DNA of 64,000 bases. Source: Escherichia phage vB-Eco-KMB38. Below, in pieces: positions 5,972-58,534 of this stretch; the first letter of the stretch is position 1, and every line of letters starts with the position of its first letter. Position numbers and translations under genes: made by a program. The notes beneath the pieces are model-generated. The model was not told where the DNA came from. It saw only the letters and a list, made by a program, of their open reading frames with translations, and did no database searches. The stretch lies in sequence record OR525701.1; one strand, given 5' to 3'.

Positions 5972-6151
5972 TTAACCCTTCTTAAGTAAGTCGTAAAAAC
6001 CACCGTTCACATGTTTAGGAGCAGAAACCCGACGAGTAGACAGACGATGACATTCAGGGCAAACATCGTTTTCTCGTTCAGAAATTCTTTTAATTTTTTC
6101 ATATTCATGACCACAATCTTCGGATTGACATTTATAGTCGTATAACGGCAT
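5972..6151 (-). CDS. small zinc-ribbon protein (59 aa, below ORF-track cutoff)
   Basis: ATG start overlapping upstream stop (TAATG); CxxC...CxxC pairs (CQSEDC...CPEC); translated by hand from sequence. Confidence 0.5.
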   Translation of the reverse strand: MPLYDYKCQSEDCGHEYEKIKRISERENDVCPECHRLSTRRVSAPKHVNGGFYDLLKKG

Positions 6152-6564
6152 TATTGTTCCTTAAAGTGAGCTTTCAACATTTGATACAAAGACCATGCCT
6201 GGTCGTTATTTTCGATAGTAATTGTCATCACTGGAAATTCAGACAATTCGTCAAGTTCATCAGAATCTTGCTCTTCGGACGCTTGATATGGATTTCCAAC
6301 TTCGTCAAAGAACTCTGCTTCATTCGTGGAGAGCCAGATAAAGTTTTCATCAAGGATATCACCACCCGTGTCGTATCCAACCGTGCCAGTAGATGTCACA
6401 ATTTTAGTAGGACGACCAAGATGGTCAACATCTAATACTTTAAATGGTTCCATGCCAAGACGTCGTGCATAAATCCCATTATCAGTGTGGTTTTTAATAA
6501 ACTCTTCTTGGGCACGTTTATCTTTAAATTGGTACCATGAGTTAACGCGGAATTTATTAGCCAT
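6151..6564 (-). CDS. hypothetical protein (acidic C-terminal region)
   Basis: ORF-track 6151..6582; start re-set to ATG (MANKF) preceded by GGAAGGAAAC RBS and overlapping upstream stop. Confidence 0.6.
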
Positions 6565-6791
6565 TAGTAAGTTTCCTTCCAATAAGTTGTACCGTTTTCA
6601 GTGATTTCACGGAAGATACCGTAGATAGGCATTTCATCACCGAGTTTTTCGTAAACGTAAACCACTTCGGTGTAGCATAAAAATCCGGTCCAGTTTTTCT
6701 GTACAACAACTAAATCAGGATTAAACAGAACATCTTCAAACTCATCGATGTTTGAATCAGTAGTTACGTTTTTAATGATTTGACGTTTCAT
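6564..6791 (-). CDS. hypothetical protein
   Basis: ORF-track 6564..6836; likely start at internal ATG (MKRQII) with AAGAGGAGAA RBS, downstream of promoter at 6820-6848. Confidence 0.5.
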
Positions 6792-6819
6792 AATATTCTC
6801 CTCTTGTTTTGATAGGTCT

Positions 6820-6848
6820 ATAGTATCATAGACCATAGTTGTTGTACA
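6820..6848 (-). promoter_or_regulatory. T4-type early promoter (-35 TGTACA, -10 TACTAT)
   Basis: sigma70-like hexamers with 17 bp spacer on minus strand; -10 embedded in dyad GGTCTAT..ATAGACC. Confidence 0.45.
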
Positions 6849-7373
6849 TCATTTTAGCAAAATAAAATCAACTTGTTCTGCCAATGAACGTCTAAACATT
6901 AATTGACAACTTCCGAGGATGAAATCAGGTGCTTCATAGACCGCGATGTAGTATCCTTTAGCTTTCAAGAGTTCAACATCCACCTGGTCATCAAACCATG
7001 CATAAACCGCGTCAACGCTTTCAAATCCAAAATAGAACCCTTGAGCCCAATCTTCACTCAATTCAAATGTGTGCTCAATTCTATAGTATCTTAAGATATT
7101 TTGTTCAAGGAGTTTGTCTTCATTTACTGTAGGACGATTAGGGACATTATAGTTGTCGCCGTGATGGTAGAAGTTACCTGAGAGTATTCCATGCTTATCA
7201 AGGAACTCCCATGTTTCTTCAGAGTTGTCGGTGCCCGACCAACCGTATGGCGAGCGAGGTTCTTTATTCCAAGAGGTTTCCCAAATTCTGACGGCTTTAC
7301 CGTCTTCGATAGCAATTCCTGGTAATGATTCACGTTGAGTGCAAAAACTACGTTCTACGCGGTAAACTAACAT
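6849..7373 (-). CDS. hypothetical protein
   Basis: 174 aa ORF, ATG start with GAGGAG RBS. Confidence 0.65.
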   Translation of the reverse strand: MLVYRVERSFCTQRESLPGIAIEDGKAVRIWETSWNKEPRSPYGWSGTDNSEETWEFLDKHGILSGNFYHHGDNYNVPNRPTVNEDKLLEQNILRYYRIEHTFELSEDWAQGFYFGFESVDAVYAWFDDQVDVELLKAKGYYIAVYEAPDFILGSCQLMFRRSLAEQVDFILLK

Positions 7374-7398
7374 ATTATTCTCCTCTGGTTGATATGGT

Positions 7399-7427
7399 TA
7401 TAATATCAAAACCAGAGGAGAAGTAAA
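7399..7427 (-). promoter_or_regulatory. T4-type early promoter (-35 GTTTAC, 17 bp, -10 TATTAT)
   Basis: match to T4 early promoter consensus on minus strand upstream of 6849..7373. Confidence 0.55.
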
Positions 7428-7432
7428 CAACT

Positions 7433-7852
7433 TTATGCGAAAGCAGCTGGGCTATATTTTTTAATTTGGAATTCAGGAACTACCATGAACTGACCAGCGA
7501 AAACGATGTTATAAAGCTTAACACCATCTTCTACCCAACGGTCGCTAATAAATCCGGCGATTTGCTTAGTTTTCTATGGCGTTCCATCAGTTGCCGCAGC
7601 AATAGTGAATTCATGGTCTTTTTCAACAGAAACTGATCTGCATAGTCCCCATTTGAACGCTTTTTCTTCTGGCTCAATGAACTGGCTTGAGACGTAGCCA
7701 ATATTACCATTAGCATCACGAACTTTAACTTGGTTACGACCAAAAACCGGATCACTCACAGAAAGAACTTCAACCAACTTCCCGGCAACTTTAGAGCGAG
7801 AAGCAACAGATACATATACGTAATCACCTGTAGAGAGATTTACAATATTCAT
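7433..7852 (-). pseudogene. third member of a paralog family interrupted by an in-frame TAG at 7574-7576 (N-terminal 92 aa ORF 7577..7852, C-terminal 45 codons continue in frame to TAA at 7433)
   Basis: hand translation: ...AAATDGTP*KTKQIAGFISDRWVEDGVKLYNIVFAGQFMVV...; both halves align to paralogs 7862..8347 and 8409..8903. Confidence 0.55.
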
Positions 7853-7861
7853 AATAATTCC

Positions 7862-8347
7862 TTAAGCTTTACGAGGAGACACATAGCGAGTGATTTCGGA
7901 TTCTTTAACAACTCGGAAGTCACCTAAGAATACGATATTGTATAACTTTTCACCATCTTCTACCCATTGGTCACTAATGAAGCCACACATGGTATCAGTT
8001 GTGCTTGGATAACCATATTCATCGATGAAGTCAAATTCTTTATCAGTCTGGAATTCAACACCTTTACACAAGGCCCATTTGAACTGTACATTAGGCTCTG
8101 TGGATTCAACTTTTTCTCTTGAAGCAAAAGCACTACTCGCAGGAGTTTCCAAGAACTTTGCACGAACATAAGCGAACTGAGTTTCCCTCGACCCAAGACT
8201 AGGAATAATACGAACTTTTACCTCAGAATCTTCATCTTTAACGCCTTCTTTAAGTTGAATACTTACAACTTCGACCAATTTTCCTGCTGCTTTAGAACGA
8301 GATTTGTTAGATACGCGAACGATTTCACCAATAATACCAAGATTCAT
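7862..8347 (-). CDS. hypothetical protein, paralog family member (shared C-terminal motif DQWVEDGxxLxNxVxxGDFxVV)
   Basis: 161 aa ORF; N-terminus similar to 7577..7852 (KxAGKLVEVxS), C-terminus similar to 8409..8903. Confidence 0.7.
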   Translation of the reverse strand: MNLGIIGEIVRVSNKSRSKAAGKLVEVVSIQLKEGVKDEDSEVKVRIIPSLGSRETQFAYVRAKFLETPASSAFASREKVESTEPNVQFKWALCKGVEFQTDKEFDFIDEYGYPSTTDTMCGFISDQWVEDGEKLYNIVFLGDFRVVKESEITRYVSPRKA

Positions 8348-8375
8348 AATTTTCTCTCTTTGTTTAAGTTGAATT

Positions 8376-8404
8376 CATTATACTCCATCCGTCCTTGGAT
8401 GTAC
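8376..8404 (-). promoter_or_regulatory. T4-type early promoter (-35 TGTACA, -10 TATAAT)
   Basis: hexamers with 17 bp spacer containing CCAAGGACGG. Confidence 0.5.
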
Positions 8405-8408
8405 AACA

Positions 8409-8903
8409 TTAATTAAGGATATTAACCACAGCACTACGTGGAACTACACTAAAATCACCTGCATGAACAACGTTCAGAAGTTCAACACCGTCTTCAATCC
8501 ATTGGTCAGTTACCCATCCATTTACTGGACCAGCGAATGGGCGTCGAATTGAAACATATTTACACAACAAATCAGTAGGCTCAATAGGCTTAATCAGAGT
8601 ACCGTACATACAAGCGATATCCATATCAATACAGATATCTTTAACGGGTTCTACTTCTTCAATCAACAGTTCAAAGTCGGTGCTTGGAAGGGCGGTGGTA
8701 GAAATTGTACCATATGAATTTTTAATTTCTAAGAATAACCAAGGGCCTTCAACTTGTTTGATGAAGTTAACAATAGTGAAACTATTACCTTGAGTGGCAC
8801 CTAAAATTTCACAAAACTTTTCATAAGCTCGCACTGAAGCACCGTACCAGTTGATTTGTTTTTCATCTTTCAGGATGTAAGTAGCCGTAGTATTGATATT
8901 CAT
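8409..8903 (-). CDS. hypothetical protein, paralog family member
   Basis: 164 aa ORF; C-terminal WVTDQWIEDGVELLNVVHAGDFSVV matches paralogs. Confidence 0.7.
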   Translation of the reverse strand: MNINTTATYILKDEKQINWYGASVRAYEKFCEILGATQGNSFTIVNFIKQVEGPWLFLEIKNSYGTISTTALPSTDFELLIEEVEPVKDICIDMDIACMYGTLIKPIEPTDLLCKYVSIRRPFAGPVNGWVTDQWIEDGVELLNVVHAGDFSVVPRSAVVNILN

Positions 8904-8933
8904 AATGTTTTCCTGTTTGGTTAAGATAGAAAG

Positions 8934-8963
8934 ATTATACTCAAACCATCCTTGGTTGTAAAC
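8934..8963 (-). promoter_or_regulatory. T4-type early promoter (-35 GTTTAC, -10 TATAAT)
   Basis: hexamers with 18 bp spacer AACCAAGGATGGTTTGAG. Confidence 0.5.
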
Positions 8964-8968
8964 TGGTT

Positions 8969-9646
8969 TTATCGCTGTTTTACACTTAACGGGTCAGGAT
9001 TCTCAGGGACATCTTCAAGGCCAAGCGCATAACGCTGAGCATATTTTAACATCAAAATATCTTTAGCACAATCGTGAATACTATCATGGGCAACGAATCC
9101 TTTTAGCGTACCCATCGGTAATGGACACATACTTAATCCTCGTGTCAACGAGTAAGCTTCGATTGCCGTACGAATATCACGTTGAGCCCAGAATTTAACA
9201 GGTTCTAATTTATCAGTATCAATATCTGGTTCAAGAACACCTTCATCACGATAGAGGTCACGAATCAAATCGACCAATATCGGGAAGTCAAAGCTCATAC
9301 CACGGCACCACATCTGTGATTTCCATTGGTCAACTTTATTAGCTCGACAATAATCTAAAAAGATTTTAATGCCTTCAAGCGTAGTGACATCGTCTTCAGA
9401 CGGAGCCAAGTTTTTACGCGCTTCAGCCGATTGTTCTTTCCACCATTTCATAGTGGATTTAGCGAAAACTCGCTTCCCTTTCTGAGAAGCTAAATTAAAT
9501 TTAATTCGCTTACCTCGTTGAACAAGTTCTTCAAATGATTCAACAACTTCAGGGTCGGAATTATATGCAATAACCGCAAGGTCAATAACAGCCGCTTTTG
9601 ATGTATTGCCGAATGTTTCAAAATCTATAATAACATCAGTGCTCAT
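8969..9646 (-). CDS. dexA: exonuclease A (DEDD 3'-5' exonuclease)
   Basis: 225 aa; DFETFG exo motif; position upstream of dda as in T4. Confidence 0.8.
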   Translation of the reverse strand: MSTDVIIDFETFGNTSKAAVIDLAVIAYNSDPEVVESFEELVQRGKRIKFNLASQKGKRVFAKSTMKWWKEQSAEARKNLAPSEDDVTTLEGIKIFLDYCRANKVDQWKSQMWCRGMSFDFPILVDLIRDLYRDEGVLEPDIDTDKLEPVKFWAQRDIRTAIEAYSLTRGLSMCPLPMGTLKGFVAHDSIHDCAKDILMLKYAQRYALGLEDVPENPDPLSVKQR

Positions 9647-9655
9647 AATTTTCTC

Positions 9656-10969
9656 TCAAATAAAATGGACGTCAAAACGACCACGAGTTGTGCCGACATA
9701 CAATAACTGTTTAGCTAATTCTGAATCGGCATAATGGATACACGGTGTATAAACAAAGGCTGTGTCAACAGACATACCCTGGGCCTTATGGAAGGTTGAT
9801 ACTGGTAGTGCCTTCACCTTAGTGAACATACGTTTAGCATCCCAGAATTCGCTCCATGGAGCTTTACCACCTTTATTCCAGAATTTGTATGTTTCTGCGG
9901 TCTTAGCCAAAAACAAATTGAATTTATAAAGCTCTTCTTCAGAAGAAATAACCTTTATATCTTCGCGGATGTATTCTTCATCATCACCATATGTTTCTAC
10001 TGTAAGATTCCAGTATCGTATCATATATTCGCCTGAAACACCACGTGCTTTAACGAATGTAGACGTTTCTACAGCATCTCGAATACGAACGAATTGCCCG
10101 TTATTGAAAAGCATTTCGGTCATATTTTTACCATCTAGCTTATATGTCTTAGTAAATGGCTCTTGTAGAACAATGACTTCGTCTTTAATAAATGGTTTTT
10201 CTGTTTCAAGAAGTTTTCGGCGAATAATTGAATTTAACTTGTCCACCGACTTATTTGTGAATGCCATCATTCGATTTTCGAAAAGGTCTTCAGGAGTTTT
10301 AACGACGTTAAAATAGTTCATCATATACGATTTAAGGTCTGTATATCCATGAACACCGTGTCCATCAACTACTTTATCGTAAATCCATTTGCCATTACGA
10401 ATATCAGTCGCAACATCAATAATTGGTGCATTGCTACGTTTAACTTCTGTAAGGTTGCATTGCACGAAGTCTTTGTGAGTGAAGAAAGGACTTAGATACG
10501 CAGTTGATTCGCCTGGGTCTACCGGTCGAATCTGGCATCGGTCACCAATTCCAATTACTGTGCACCATTTAGGGATACTAGCTAACATTATTTTAAACAG
10601 AGGACGGTCGCACATTGACGCTTCATCAAATAACAGTACACGACACAAGGCTAAGTCGGGAACCTTTTTCTGTTCAAACAATACGTTTTCTTCGTATGTA
10701 GTTGGGTTGATTTTAAGAATGCTATGAATAGTCGATGCTTCTTGACCCGCAAGTTTGCTTAGAACCTTTTTAGCAGCATGTGTAGGGGCTGCTAAAATAA
10801 TACCTGATTCTCCAGAAGAAATAAGGGCTTCAACGATGAATCTAGTAAGGGTTGTTTTACCTGTACCAGCGGGTCCATTAATAGTTACATGATGTTTCTT
10901 TTCTTTAATAGCTTCCATAACAACGTTGAAGGCGTTTTTCTGGCCTTCAGTCAAATCATCAAATGTCAT
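9656..10969 (-). CDS. dda: Dda DNA helicase (SF1B)
   Basis: 437 aa; Walker A GPAGTGKTT; T4 dda is 439 aa at same position. Confidence 0.9.
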   Translation of the reverse strand: MTFDDLTEGQKNAFNVVMEAIKEKKHHVTINGPAGTGKTTLTRFIVEALISSGESGIILAAPTHAAKKVLSKLAGQEASTIHSILKINPTTYEENVLFEQKKVPDLALCRVLLFDEASMCDRPLFKIMLASIPKWCTVIGIGDRCQIRPVDPGESTAYLSPFFTHKDFVQCNLTEVKRSNAPIIDVATDIRNGKWIYDKVVDGHGVHGYTDLKSYMMNYFNVVKTPEDLFENRMMAFTNKSVDKLNSIIRRKLLETEKPFIKDEVIVLQEPFTKTYKLDGKNMTEMLFNNGQFVRIRDAVETSTFVKARGVSGEYMIRYWNLTVETYGDDEEYIREDIKVISSEEELYKFNLFLAKTAETYKFWNKGGKAPWSEFWDAKRMFTKVKALPVSTFHKAQGMSVDTAFVYTPCIHYADSELAKQLLYVGTTRGRFDVHFI

Positions 10970-19580: not shown

Positions 19581-19832
19581 CTATTTTAAACTTTTGCGAA
19601 ATTTGCGTTTTTCTTGACGAATCTGCCGTTTAGTCGGACGTACAGCAAATTTAACGAAGTCCACTTTGCCATGTGGAAACTTTTCAGATGCTTCGCAGTC
19701 CATCATTAGTTCCCATCCTTCCAGAATAAGAGCTTTCCATTGTGTAGTTGATGCAAATTCGTATGTTGATGGTTTAAACACAGTTGAATACATATTATCC
19801 TCTGAAATCAGCTTCAAAAACTTTCTCGTCAT
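19581..19832 (-). CDS. small protein with basic C-terminal tail (RPTKRQIR motif)
   Basis: 83 aa; tail similar to 48010..48207. Confidence 0.5.
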   Translation of the reverse strand: MTRKFLKLISEDNMYSTVFKPSTYEFASTTQWKALILEGWELMMDCEASEKFPHGKVDFVKFAVRPTKRQIRQEKRKFRKSLK

Positions 19833-26041: not shown

Positions 26042-26319
26042 GTTTACCTCAATACAATTTATTATATACTCAATTCATAAAGCTTATTTGAATTTCTTGG
26101 CAATGTTGATATAACGTAAAGCTTCACCATCAATACTTCCAAGAACACTATGAAGAAATGCATCAGCTTAGTATTCCAATTGAACAGGTTCTTTAATCAC
26201 TTTAGCCGCTTTGGTTTCAAACAGGCCCATCAGGGCCTTTTTAAGAATTTGTTCGTTAGTGTTCAGTTTTATAGTCAAAATCTTTTCATTAAGTTGGTGG
26301 TTAAAAGTTTTTCTAGAAA

Positions 26320-27480
26320 TCATTCCGGGTACCTCAAAGCGTCATCAGAGTTAGTTATATCAATAATAGATATAGAGTTTTCTGCTAACCCATTTTTAGA
26401 TAACTGACGTTTATAATATCTTTCACAATATGTACACGTCGTCCCGCAGATTTCATTAGCACAATCGAAATCTGGATGTCTGAACCACCTTTTTTCTAAA
26501 AAGCCATCTAACAAAGAGGTTTCAATATTTACTGTATGTGAAAACTCGGTCTCATTTTCAAGAGTGAAAATAGTCTCTAAAGGCTTCCACAGTTCTAACA
26601 AATTACCTTCAAACTTTTCAGAAGCGTATGCTTCAAGAACTTTCAAAATGTAGTCTGTGCTACCTGTACGTCCTGAAACTTTGAATTGAGTGATACCAAT
26701 ATCATTATAAAGTTTCAAATCTTGAGGACGAACAAAACGAGTTCTCAACCAGTTAAATGGGTCTGTATCACGAGCTTTAATACAGTGCTGCATAGGATAT
26801 CCGTTTAAGGATTTAGCATCATCAGCTGTAACATCAGTACTATGGAAAATATAGCAAGAGTCACGATAGCTACAATGTGTTGTATACCCTTTACCAGCAT
26901 TAGAACAGAACTCATTTACAAGAACTTCAAATATTATATTGTTCTTATTGCAAAACTCTGCTGCACGCTTCAGGAAAGAAACTGAACGGTTCTTATGAAT
27001 TCCACAGCAGACCTTTTTGATATTATACTGGTCATGCAAGTATTTGATTTGAGTTACAGCATCGACATGTAGAATTGTTGAAACTTCAATCTCAATGTCT
27101 TTATTGACTTCACGAACAATTTCCATAACAACAGGGTTAGCGATAGTAATACGCCATACGCCTATTGACCAAAGATACTGAACATAATCCTGAATAGCTT
27201 TCTTCTTCCACTCAACTAGTTCTCTTTTTGAACCAGGATTTATCGTGTTGAGTGTATAGTTAAAGCAAATACCTAATTCGTTACAACGTTTAACGTAATC
27301 TTCTAACATCTTTTTGTCAACGTCAGGAAGCCTAAAATCAGGTCTGGCTGCTACAAAAGCCATTTCTCTTGTAGAGCCGTATACTTCATTTATCAAGCTA
27401 TTAGGATAAGTTTTATTGAGCTCTACGATTTTATCAAGAAGAGCTAAATCAAAATTCGTTCCGATTTTAAAAGTATTCAT
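26320..27480 (-). CDS. Cys-rich enzyme of unknown function (tentative peptidase-U32-like/metal-binding)
   Basis: 386 aa; C-terminal CANEICGTTCTYC cluster and internal CSNAGKGYTTHCSYRDSC; part of island between 42 and 43. Confidence 0.6.
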   Translation of the reverse strand: MNTFKIGTNFDLALLDKIVELNKTYPNSLINEVYGSTREMAFVAARPDFRLPDVDKKMLEDYVKRCNELGICFNYTLNTINPGSKRELVEWKKKAIQDYVQYLWSIGVWRITIANPVVMEIVREVNKDIEIEVSTILHVDAVTQIKYLHDQYNIKKVCCGIHKNRSVSFLKRAAEFCNKNNIIFEVLVNEFCSNAGKGYTTHCSYRDSCYIFHSTDVTADDAKSLNGYPMQHCIKARDTDPFNWLRTRFVRPQDLKLYNDIGITQFKVSGRTGSTDYILKVLEAYASEKFEGNLLELWKPLETIFTLENETEFSHTVNIETSLLDGFLEKRWFRHPDFDCANEICGTTCTYCERYYKRQLSKNGLAENSISIIDITNSDDALRYPE

Positions 27481-57976: not shown

Positions 57977-58534
57977 TTAGTTTTTGTAATATCGTAAAGG
58001 GTTGATATGGAATGAAAGCATTGCGCGTGGAATAGGACGACTCAAAAGACTCTTAAGTTTCCAACCACAGTAAACACGCAGATAAAATGTAATACCACCA
58101 ACCTTAAGATAAGGTATAGCAGCGAATAATCCCCATGCAGACTCGTTCCAAACTAAAAGATATCCATGATGTGCCGGATCAGGAGATCCAGATTTAGTTT
58201 CAGCGTTGCCTTTATAGTGCCATTCTGATGAAGCTTCGCGACCTAAAACATGATACGAAAAATTATATGCTTTGTTGCGCCATAACCAAGCTACGCGTTG
58301 AGCATATTTACCTATAACAGGAATTTTACGTATTTTAGACCAACGTTCAACATGACCACGGTCACCATCGATAGGATTATCGTAAGTCATCATCCAGTCA
58401 AAGCCATAAGGTAGTTTACCTGTTTTTTCACTATGGAATGGAACTACAAATGGTGCTAGAATAATTGCTAAAATCGCTGCGATCCAATCTATAGGAACAA
58501 GAACAACCCAACTTATGTATTTTAAAAATTTCAT
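57977..58534 (-). CDS. membrane-anchored hypothetical protein
   Basis: 185 aa; N-terminal TM helix; flanked by identical terminator repeats. Confidence 0.6.
   Translation of the reverse strand: MKFLKYISWVVLVPIDWIAAILAIILAPFVVPFHSEKTGKLPYGFDWMMTYDNPIDGDRGHVERWSKIRKIPVIGKYAQRVAWLWRNKAYNFSYHVLGREASSEWHYKGNAETKSGSPDPAHHGYLLVWNESAWGLFAAIPYLKVGGITFYLRVYCGWKLKSLLSRPIPRAMLSFHINPLRYYKN

Follow-up and report, generated by a model that had tools for sequence, protein, structure and literature searches.

The MotB protein of bacteriophage T4 is an early protein that binds DNA tightly and non-specifically, and it copurifies with H-NS (PMC6070864, PMC7827196). MotB proteins have a two-domain build, in which a KOW/SH3-like N-terminal domain is followed by a C-terminal beta domain containing a conserved core motif (PMC7827196). 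The motB gene of T4 is non-essential and lies in a dispensable region (deletion 'Delta12'), and an engineered motB amber mutation halved the burst size (PMC6070864). In phage RB69 two copies of motB are found along with one motB.1 (PMC7827196).

Here we describe a motB-family gene that is interrupted by a single in-frame amber codon. It is carried on the first 64 kb of the genome of a Mosigvirus, an RB69-like T-even phage of E. coli; this is the whole stretch of DNA that was analysed and we refer to it as the window. The interrupted gene resembles T4 motB in belonging to the PF17613 family, in its predicted architecture and in its genome neighbourhood, although the window copy is shorter (139 rather than 161-162 aa, the middle segment being shorter) and is cut before the C-terminal core. 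As with the engineered T4 mutant, an amber codon is present in a motB-family gene of a viable phage; however, the T4 mutation was introduced deliberately into a single motB gene and lowers the burst approximately 2-fold on a non-suppressor host (PMC6070864), whereas the window allele is spontaneous and affects a duplicate. We consider it probable, at about three chances in four, that the amber codon is a genuine, recent and strain-private nonsense mutation that inactivates a redundant and non-essential motB duplicate.

The second motB copy is interrupted by an in-frame amber codon

The window was assigned to an RB69-like T-even phage on the basis of its minus-strand gene content, which includes rIIA, gene 39, goF, cef, motB.2, the motB family, dexA and dda and continues onward to ipII, together with megablast identities, since approximately 200 Mosigvirus genomes match it at 95-99.7% identity. 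No record identical to the window was found in the phage collection, where the top match over 25 kb was at 97.5%. The minus-strand order dda, dexA, motB.1, motB, motB-like, motB.2, cef, goF is the same in RB69, PhAPEC2 and SA79RD, and the interrupted gene is placed as would be expected for the MotB family, in the Tevenvirinae early region that extends from dexA to motB.2/cef/goF. The interrupted gene, its parts and its two paralogues are as follows.

7433..7852, minus strand: interrupted motB-like gene, the second motB copy of Mosigvirus; the intact form encodes 139 aa
7574-7576, minus strand (plus-strand 'CTA'): in-frame amber codon TAG at codon 93, which is TGG (Trp) in all relatives
7574..7852, minus strand: truncated open reading frame of 92 aa ending in TAG; predicted product 9,981 Da, pI 5.7
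7433..7573, minus strand: orphaned 3' segment of 46 codons and TAA, encoding the C-terminal core GFISDRWVEDGVKLYNIVFAGQFMVV
7862..8347, minus strand: motB proper, 161 aa, the paralogue that adjoins the interrupted gene upstream in transcription; matches Pfam PF17613 at 182 bits
8409..8903, minus strand: motB.1, 164 aa, a paralogue that has only the C-terminal core in common with the interrupted gene; residues 84-159 match PF17613 (35 bits), and there is a match to phrog_2333

On the minus strand the frame runs from the ATG at 7852 to a TAA at 7433-7435 and comprises 140 codons, namely 92 sense codons, the TAG, a further 46 sense codons and the terminal TAA. Translation of this strand therefore confirmed an earlier, preliminary description of this DNA, according to which the frame stays open across the TAG at 7574-7576. 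The altered base is at window position 7575, corresponding to nucleotide 278 of the gene, and is a G to A change on the coding strand. A gap of 9 nt separates motB from the interrupted gene, and the TAA stop codon of motB overlaps the Shine-Dalgarno sequence (AAGGA) of the latter.

When Trp was restored at codon 93, the protein matched the Pfam motB family PF17613 with 75.6 bits (cut-off 25) and phrog_1671, 'MotB-like transcriptional regulator', with an E value of 6.6e-51. The segment beyond the stop (residues 94-139) aligns with motB at 64% identity over 39 aa (E 4e-16) and with motB.1 at 55% over 29 aa (E 1.5e-11). Residues 1-92, in contrast, align with motB only (E 6e-11) and not with motB.1, because the N-terminal domain of motB.1 is different. 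It had been stated in the preliminary description that both sides of the TAG align to both paralogues, and this holds for the C-terminal side, while the N-terminal side aligns to motB alone. The paralogues had also been described as lying downstream; since the genes are on the minus strand, their higher plus-strand coordinates place them upstream in transcription.

The truncated product is predicted to lack the C-terminal domain

The full-length protein has a predicted mass of 15,388 Da, compared with 9,981 Da for the acidic fragment that ends at the TAG. The orphaned segment encodes the C-terminal core, GFISDRWVEDGVKLYNIVFAGQFMVV, which is common to motB and motB.1 and whose motif is given as GFISDxWVEDGxKLYNIVF. 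An AlphaFold2 model of a close homologue (P0001), which is of moderate confidence with a mean pLDDT of 64.7, contains the two-domain MotB build, that is a KOW/SH3-like N-terminal domain and a C-terminal beta domain with the core. It can be seen in this model that an N-terminal beta-barrel is formed by strands within residues 11-55 (pLDDT approximately 83), that the middle segment from 64 to 97 is poorly structured (pLDDT below 50), and that four C-terminal strands lie at 98-135, with residue 93 positioned just ahead of them. Weak SH3 matches in Pfam and the PDB agree with the modelled N-terminal fold. The 92-aa product is therefore predicted from the model to keep the KOW/SH3-like N-terminal domain and to lose every conserved C-terminal strand along with the core. 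Reinitiation could not yield the core, as the sole in-frame ATG, GTG or TTG codon that follows the stop is at Met123 and would give a product of 17 aa.

Codon 93 is a Trp codon in related phages

Orthologues of the interrupted gene are found between motB and motB.2, the same place as in the window, in RB69 (RB69ORF010c, 'similar to motB'), PhAPEC2 (gp010, YP_009056602), SA79RD (SA79RD_010) and F31 (F31_0010). In all four an intact 420-nt CDS is annotated, and these Mosigvirus orthologues encode an intact protein of 139 aa with Trp93 where the window has TAG. Nucleotide alignments gave TGG at codon 93 in 14 of 14 related loci. Seven of these loci, including SA79RD, are identical to the window throughout the gene apart from the G to A change at nucleotide 278, so that SA79RD and the window differ here by one base; across the orthologues DNA identity ranges from 98 to 99.8%. 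Likewise, all ten contigs that encode a MotB identical to that of the window have an intact 139-aa gene beside motB.

At the protein level, searches returned 25 full-length orthologue clusters, of which 24 are of 139 aa and one is of 145 aa, and a single one of these clusters represents 205 member sequences. Trp occupies this column in every orthologue cluster that was included in the alignment, while Ser is found there in the paralogue motB and Glu in motB.1. A 59-mer centred on the TAG matched 70 of 50,697 phage records by megablast, none of them at 100%. The TAG allele was likewise not found when IMG/VR, JGI metagenome contigs and GTDB genome contigs were scanned for the exact pattern; these three collections lend little power to the result, since control scans with TGG recovered only a few contigs from them. 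Exact look-up of the 92-aa product returned no record.

Among close relatives the gene has eight variable sites, seven of which are synonymous third positions, the remaining one being A86S; three of the seven synonymous sites fall 3' of codon 93. Purifying selection therefore acts on the intact gene, its 3' part included. The segment 3' of the TAG in the window is identical to that of SA79RD and six other relatives, and since there is no downstream difference from these closest relatives the lesion, read from the sequence comparison, appears to be a single and very recent G to A transition. We found no further decay following the TAG, either as extra substitutions or as indels, across the whole gene in comparison with SA79RD and the six other relatives, an observation that would equally fit a base-call error.

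Other members of the family are also found in a disrupted form. In the deposited RB69 record (AY303349, L026), positions 1977-2473, which correspond to window 8409..8903, contain a motB.1 that is broken into a 132-aa reading frame and the 29-aa RB69ORF012c, where the window and SA79RD each have one intact 164-aa motB.1. As in the window, a motB-family member is thus disrupted just before the C-terminal core in a Mosigvirus genome; the RB69 lesions, however, are two single-T insertions causing frameshifts in motB.1, as opposed to a nonsense substitution in the motB duplicate. The split explains the odd 29-aa 'Category 3' MotB peptide reported for RB69 (PMC7827196), and may be either a real frameshift or a sequencing error dating from 2003. 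In two metagenomic contigs the same motB-like paralogue as in the window carries an out-of-frame deletion, of 53 nt in QZLZ01006074.1 (L019, 1042-1408) and of 79 nt in ERZ1026884 (L020, 372-790), the latter at 1.1x coverage. Whether they are real lesions or assembly faults, these disrupted members at most suggest that the family tolerates the loss of single members. We note that the 53-nt and 79-nt deletions share their right-hand boundary in the alignment, although the reliability of both is uncertain.

Private variants and a second nonsense codon

Within 4.5 kb around the gene, and relative to six close contigs, nine variants are private to the window; the other contigs have 8-59. Five of the nine are synonymous and two jointly alter one codon of goF (A65D); the remaining two are an intergenic change and the TAG itself. 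Comparison with SA79RD revealed no frameshift in 126 ORFs (94 plus 32 minus-strand ORFs, each of at least 60 aa), where each ORF gave a single high-coverage match with three exceptions that lie at the end of the window or in replaced segments. Generally poor sequence quality or an error-prone assembly is rejected by the pattern of private variants together with the absence of frameshifts, which cannot, however, prove base 7575 itself.

When the SA79RD ORFs were projected onto the window, in-frame stop codons were found in only two annotated CDSs, the motB-like gene (TAG) and the gene listed below (TAA).

26084..26323, minus strand: homologue of RB69ORF049c / SA79RD_044 (79 aa), with a private nonsense codon TAA at 26168-26170

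The affected codon of this small accessory gene is TAC (Tyr52) in RB69 and SA79RD and has become TAA through a single C to A change. With a 59-mer centred on this second stop, 0 of 126 phage records matched at 100%.

Origin of the amber codon

If the TAG were an artefact of sequencing, assembly or consensus calling, or a minority variant in the lysate, the phage would in truth have TGG and an intact gene. The TAG is a single-base substitution that is unique among all the sequences examined, as an error would be, and the second unique nonsense substitution in the window could hint at sporadic base errors. However, five of the seven private variants in other coding sequence are synonymous, which is the signature of real variation filtered by selection, the number of private variants is within the range of the six other isolates, and frameshifts are absent. 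Random errors would create a stop codon in only about 4% of cases (50 of the 1251 possible substitutions in the gene), so two nonsense errors would imply many other errors, which are not seen. We therefore regard an artefact as unlikely, while giving it some weight. A sequencing error or a lab-strain amber mutation was among the origins offered in the preliminary description; the first is possible even though the window looks clean, whereas a classical conditional-lethal laboratory amber is rejected, as the gene is a duplicate in a region that is dispensable in T4 and no essential gene in the window has a stop. A milder form of conditionality would be that the phage was isolated or propagated on a suppressing K-12 host (supE/glnV44, for example DH5alpha or C600), in which some full-length W93Q protein would be formed; if its amount were useful, the mutation would be nearly neutral there. 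DH5alpha and TOP10 are on record as hosts of related Mosigviruses, the Ser and Glu of the paralogues at this column mean that substitution may be tolerated, and the base that follows the stop is A (TAG-A), a context that reportedly favours suppression by amber suppressor tRNAs. Against this, Trp is present in all aligned full-length orthologues, and the second private stop is a TAA, which supE does not suppress, so that the tolerance of stops in accessory genes can be accounted for without suppression. That the allele owes its presence to suppression is in our judgement improbable, and supE suppression could come into play only through the way in which the phage was propagated.

It could also be supposed that the stop was selected and not just tolerated, with removal of the DNA-binding C-terminal core or the presence of a free KOW fragment helping the phage on its host, through relief of MotB-type toxicity or through escape from a defence that senses the MotB copy. 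We think this very improbable. The N-terminal domain does remain complete and translatable, and the motB-like paralogue is independently disrupted in the two metagenomic contigs; if selection were at work, these deletions and the TAG would together point to repeated adaptive loss of the motB duplicate. The TAG allele, however, has not recurred and no clade carries it, the other disrupted copies have different lesions in low-coverage or metagenomic assemblies (one of them at only 1.1x), and a non-exhaustive literature search found no report of a defence triggered by MotB-family proteins. Nor did we find anything relevant in the literature on escape or nonsense alleles of the MotB family or on premature stops in Mosigviruses. 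As regards translation through the stop, the leaky UGA of the Qbeta coat/A1 gene is a programmed readthrough site, and such stops are conserved among relatives, the extended protein being required. The window has in common with Qbeta a meaningful open frame past the stop, which is homologous to the paralogues; but here the stop is found in one genome only, where it replaces a conserved Trp codon, and it is absent from every relative (the TGG of the 14 loci, and no TAG allele in the 70 phage records or the three contig collections). In the 106 nt that surround and follow the TAG, RNA folding is somewhat stronger than in shuffled sequences (z = -2.6). The only strong hairpin, however, begins approximately 45 nt past the TAG and, since its sequence is identical in relatives with TGG, has not evolved for readthrough; the fold scan and Rfam gave no site-specific stimulatory structure directly 3' of the TAG, and there were no Rfam matches within window 6000-10000. 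Genome-wide reassignment of TAG is likewise contradicted, as TAG terminates 12 of 118 long minus-strand ORFs in the window, only one annotated SA79RD CDS has an in-frame TAG there, and no suppressor tRNA was found either in the window, which has no tRNA gene according to ARAGORN, or in the tRNA cluster of SA79RD, which consists of tRNA-Arg and tRNA-Met only. This cluster, at about 75 kb, is beyond the range of the window, as is the phage's own, and the suppressor-tRNA search covers the window and the SA79RD cluster. The programmed readthrough or suppression entertained in the preliminary description is thus not borne out, with a stop that is unconserved and a TAG that is a normal terminator, and we regard both programmed readthrough and codon reassignment as all but excluded.

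A recent nonsense pseudogene, which the preliminary description had also proposed, fits all of the evidence: the relatives have TGG and an intact 139-aa gene, and the sequence past the stop is unchanged. By that description's own criterion, it would have been refuted by related phages in which the protein ends at this codon and the downstream sequence diverges; the opposite was found, namely Trp and near-identical downstream sequence. Orthologues that are intact at 139 aa and under purifying selection, combined with a disabling TGG to TAG change in this genome, are what would be looked for in a nonsense pseudogene.

A probable nascent pseudogene in a region dispensable in T4

According to the reading that we prefer, a recent nonsense mutation, a G to A change at window 7575 would have converted TGG to TAG at Trp93 in the second of the motB copies of Mosigvirus. 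Translation in a host without suppressor activity would then end after residue 92 to give a product of approximately 10 kDa, which would keep the KOW/SH3-like domain but lack all of the C-terminal beta-sheet core by which the MotB family is defined. Because the conserved C-terminal core is absent, the allele is expected to be null or severely hypomorphic, and the gene to be a nascent pseudogene. The mutation, the uniqueness of the allele and the part of the protein that is lost can be read off directly, and the phage would tolerate that loss for two reasons. The early region from dexA to gene 39 is reported to be dispensable in T4, and intact paralogues with the same C-terminal core, motB and motB.1, lie directly upstream; dispensability of the region together with redundancy of the paralogues is probably what allows the TAG to be tolerated.

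For annotation, the locus should be given as an interrupted motB-like gene or pseudogene, and neither as a recoding site nor as two small ORFs. The phage would provide a naturally arisen knock-out of the motB duplicate of Mosigvirus, and since it was viable enough to be isolated and sequenced, this copy, like motB of T4, appears to be dispensable under some conditions. A phage with TAG and a revertant with TGG would make up an isogenic pair with which the function of the duplicate could be addressed. In other respects the allele is an ordinary strain polymorphism.

Junctions with neighbouring genes and further features of the window

Candidate transcription signals are found on either side of the motB and motB-like genes, and motB.2 follows the interrupted gene.

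8377..8405, minus strand: promoter-like site TGTACA N17 TATAAT upstream of motB, from a consensus scan; no other such site lies nearer upstream of the interrupted gene
7373..7427, minus strand: hairpin and promoter-like site TTTACT N16 TATTAT, directly 3' of the TAA of the interrupted gene and ahead of motB.2
6849..7373, minus strand: motB.2, PF26820 (Phage_T4_Y00F) by precomputed hits; phrog_1106

The promoter scan returned no more sites than were found in shuffled sequence and its promoter-like sites are leads only; as such, the site at 8377..8405 probably drives a transcript that covers motB and the motB-like gene. The hairpin at 7373..7427 is formed by an 11-bp inverted repeat, CTCCTCTGGTT / AACCAGAGGAG, on the minus strand between the motB-like gene and motB.2, and the annotation of SA79RD has a rho-independent terminator in this stretch. 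Since this hairpin and the promoter-like site stand between the two genes and precede motB.2, the premature stop is unlikely to exert polarity on motB.2. We also observed that the 3' arm of the hairpin holds the Shine-Dalgarno sequence of motB.2 and that the promoter-like TTTACT-N16-TATTAT overlaps the hairpin, so that a terminator, a hairpin sequestering the ribosome binding site and a promoter could be combined in one short stretch.

In some relatives, F31 among them, the product of motB.2 goes under the name 'transcriptional regulator MotB'. No match to the Pfam motB family was found for it, and motB.2 adjoins the motB family without being a paralogue. Next to it, the cef ORF (6564..6836, minus strand) could begin 15 codons further upstream than it is annotated to do in relatives, which would give a protein of 90 aa instead of 75 aa, and the 90-aa form is also called in one metagenomic contig (L012). 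Finally, the segments 19581..19832 and 57977..58534, both on the minus strand, are without a counterpart at the same place in SA79RD. These replaced segments carry an ORF of 83 aa and one of 185 aa, the latter with what appears from its sequence to be a hydrophobic N-terminus, and the differences are typical of the mosaic variation in accessory genes that is seen among Mosigviruses.
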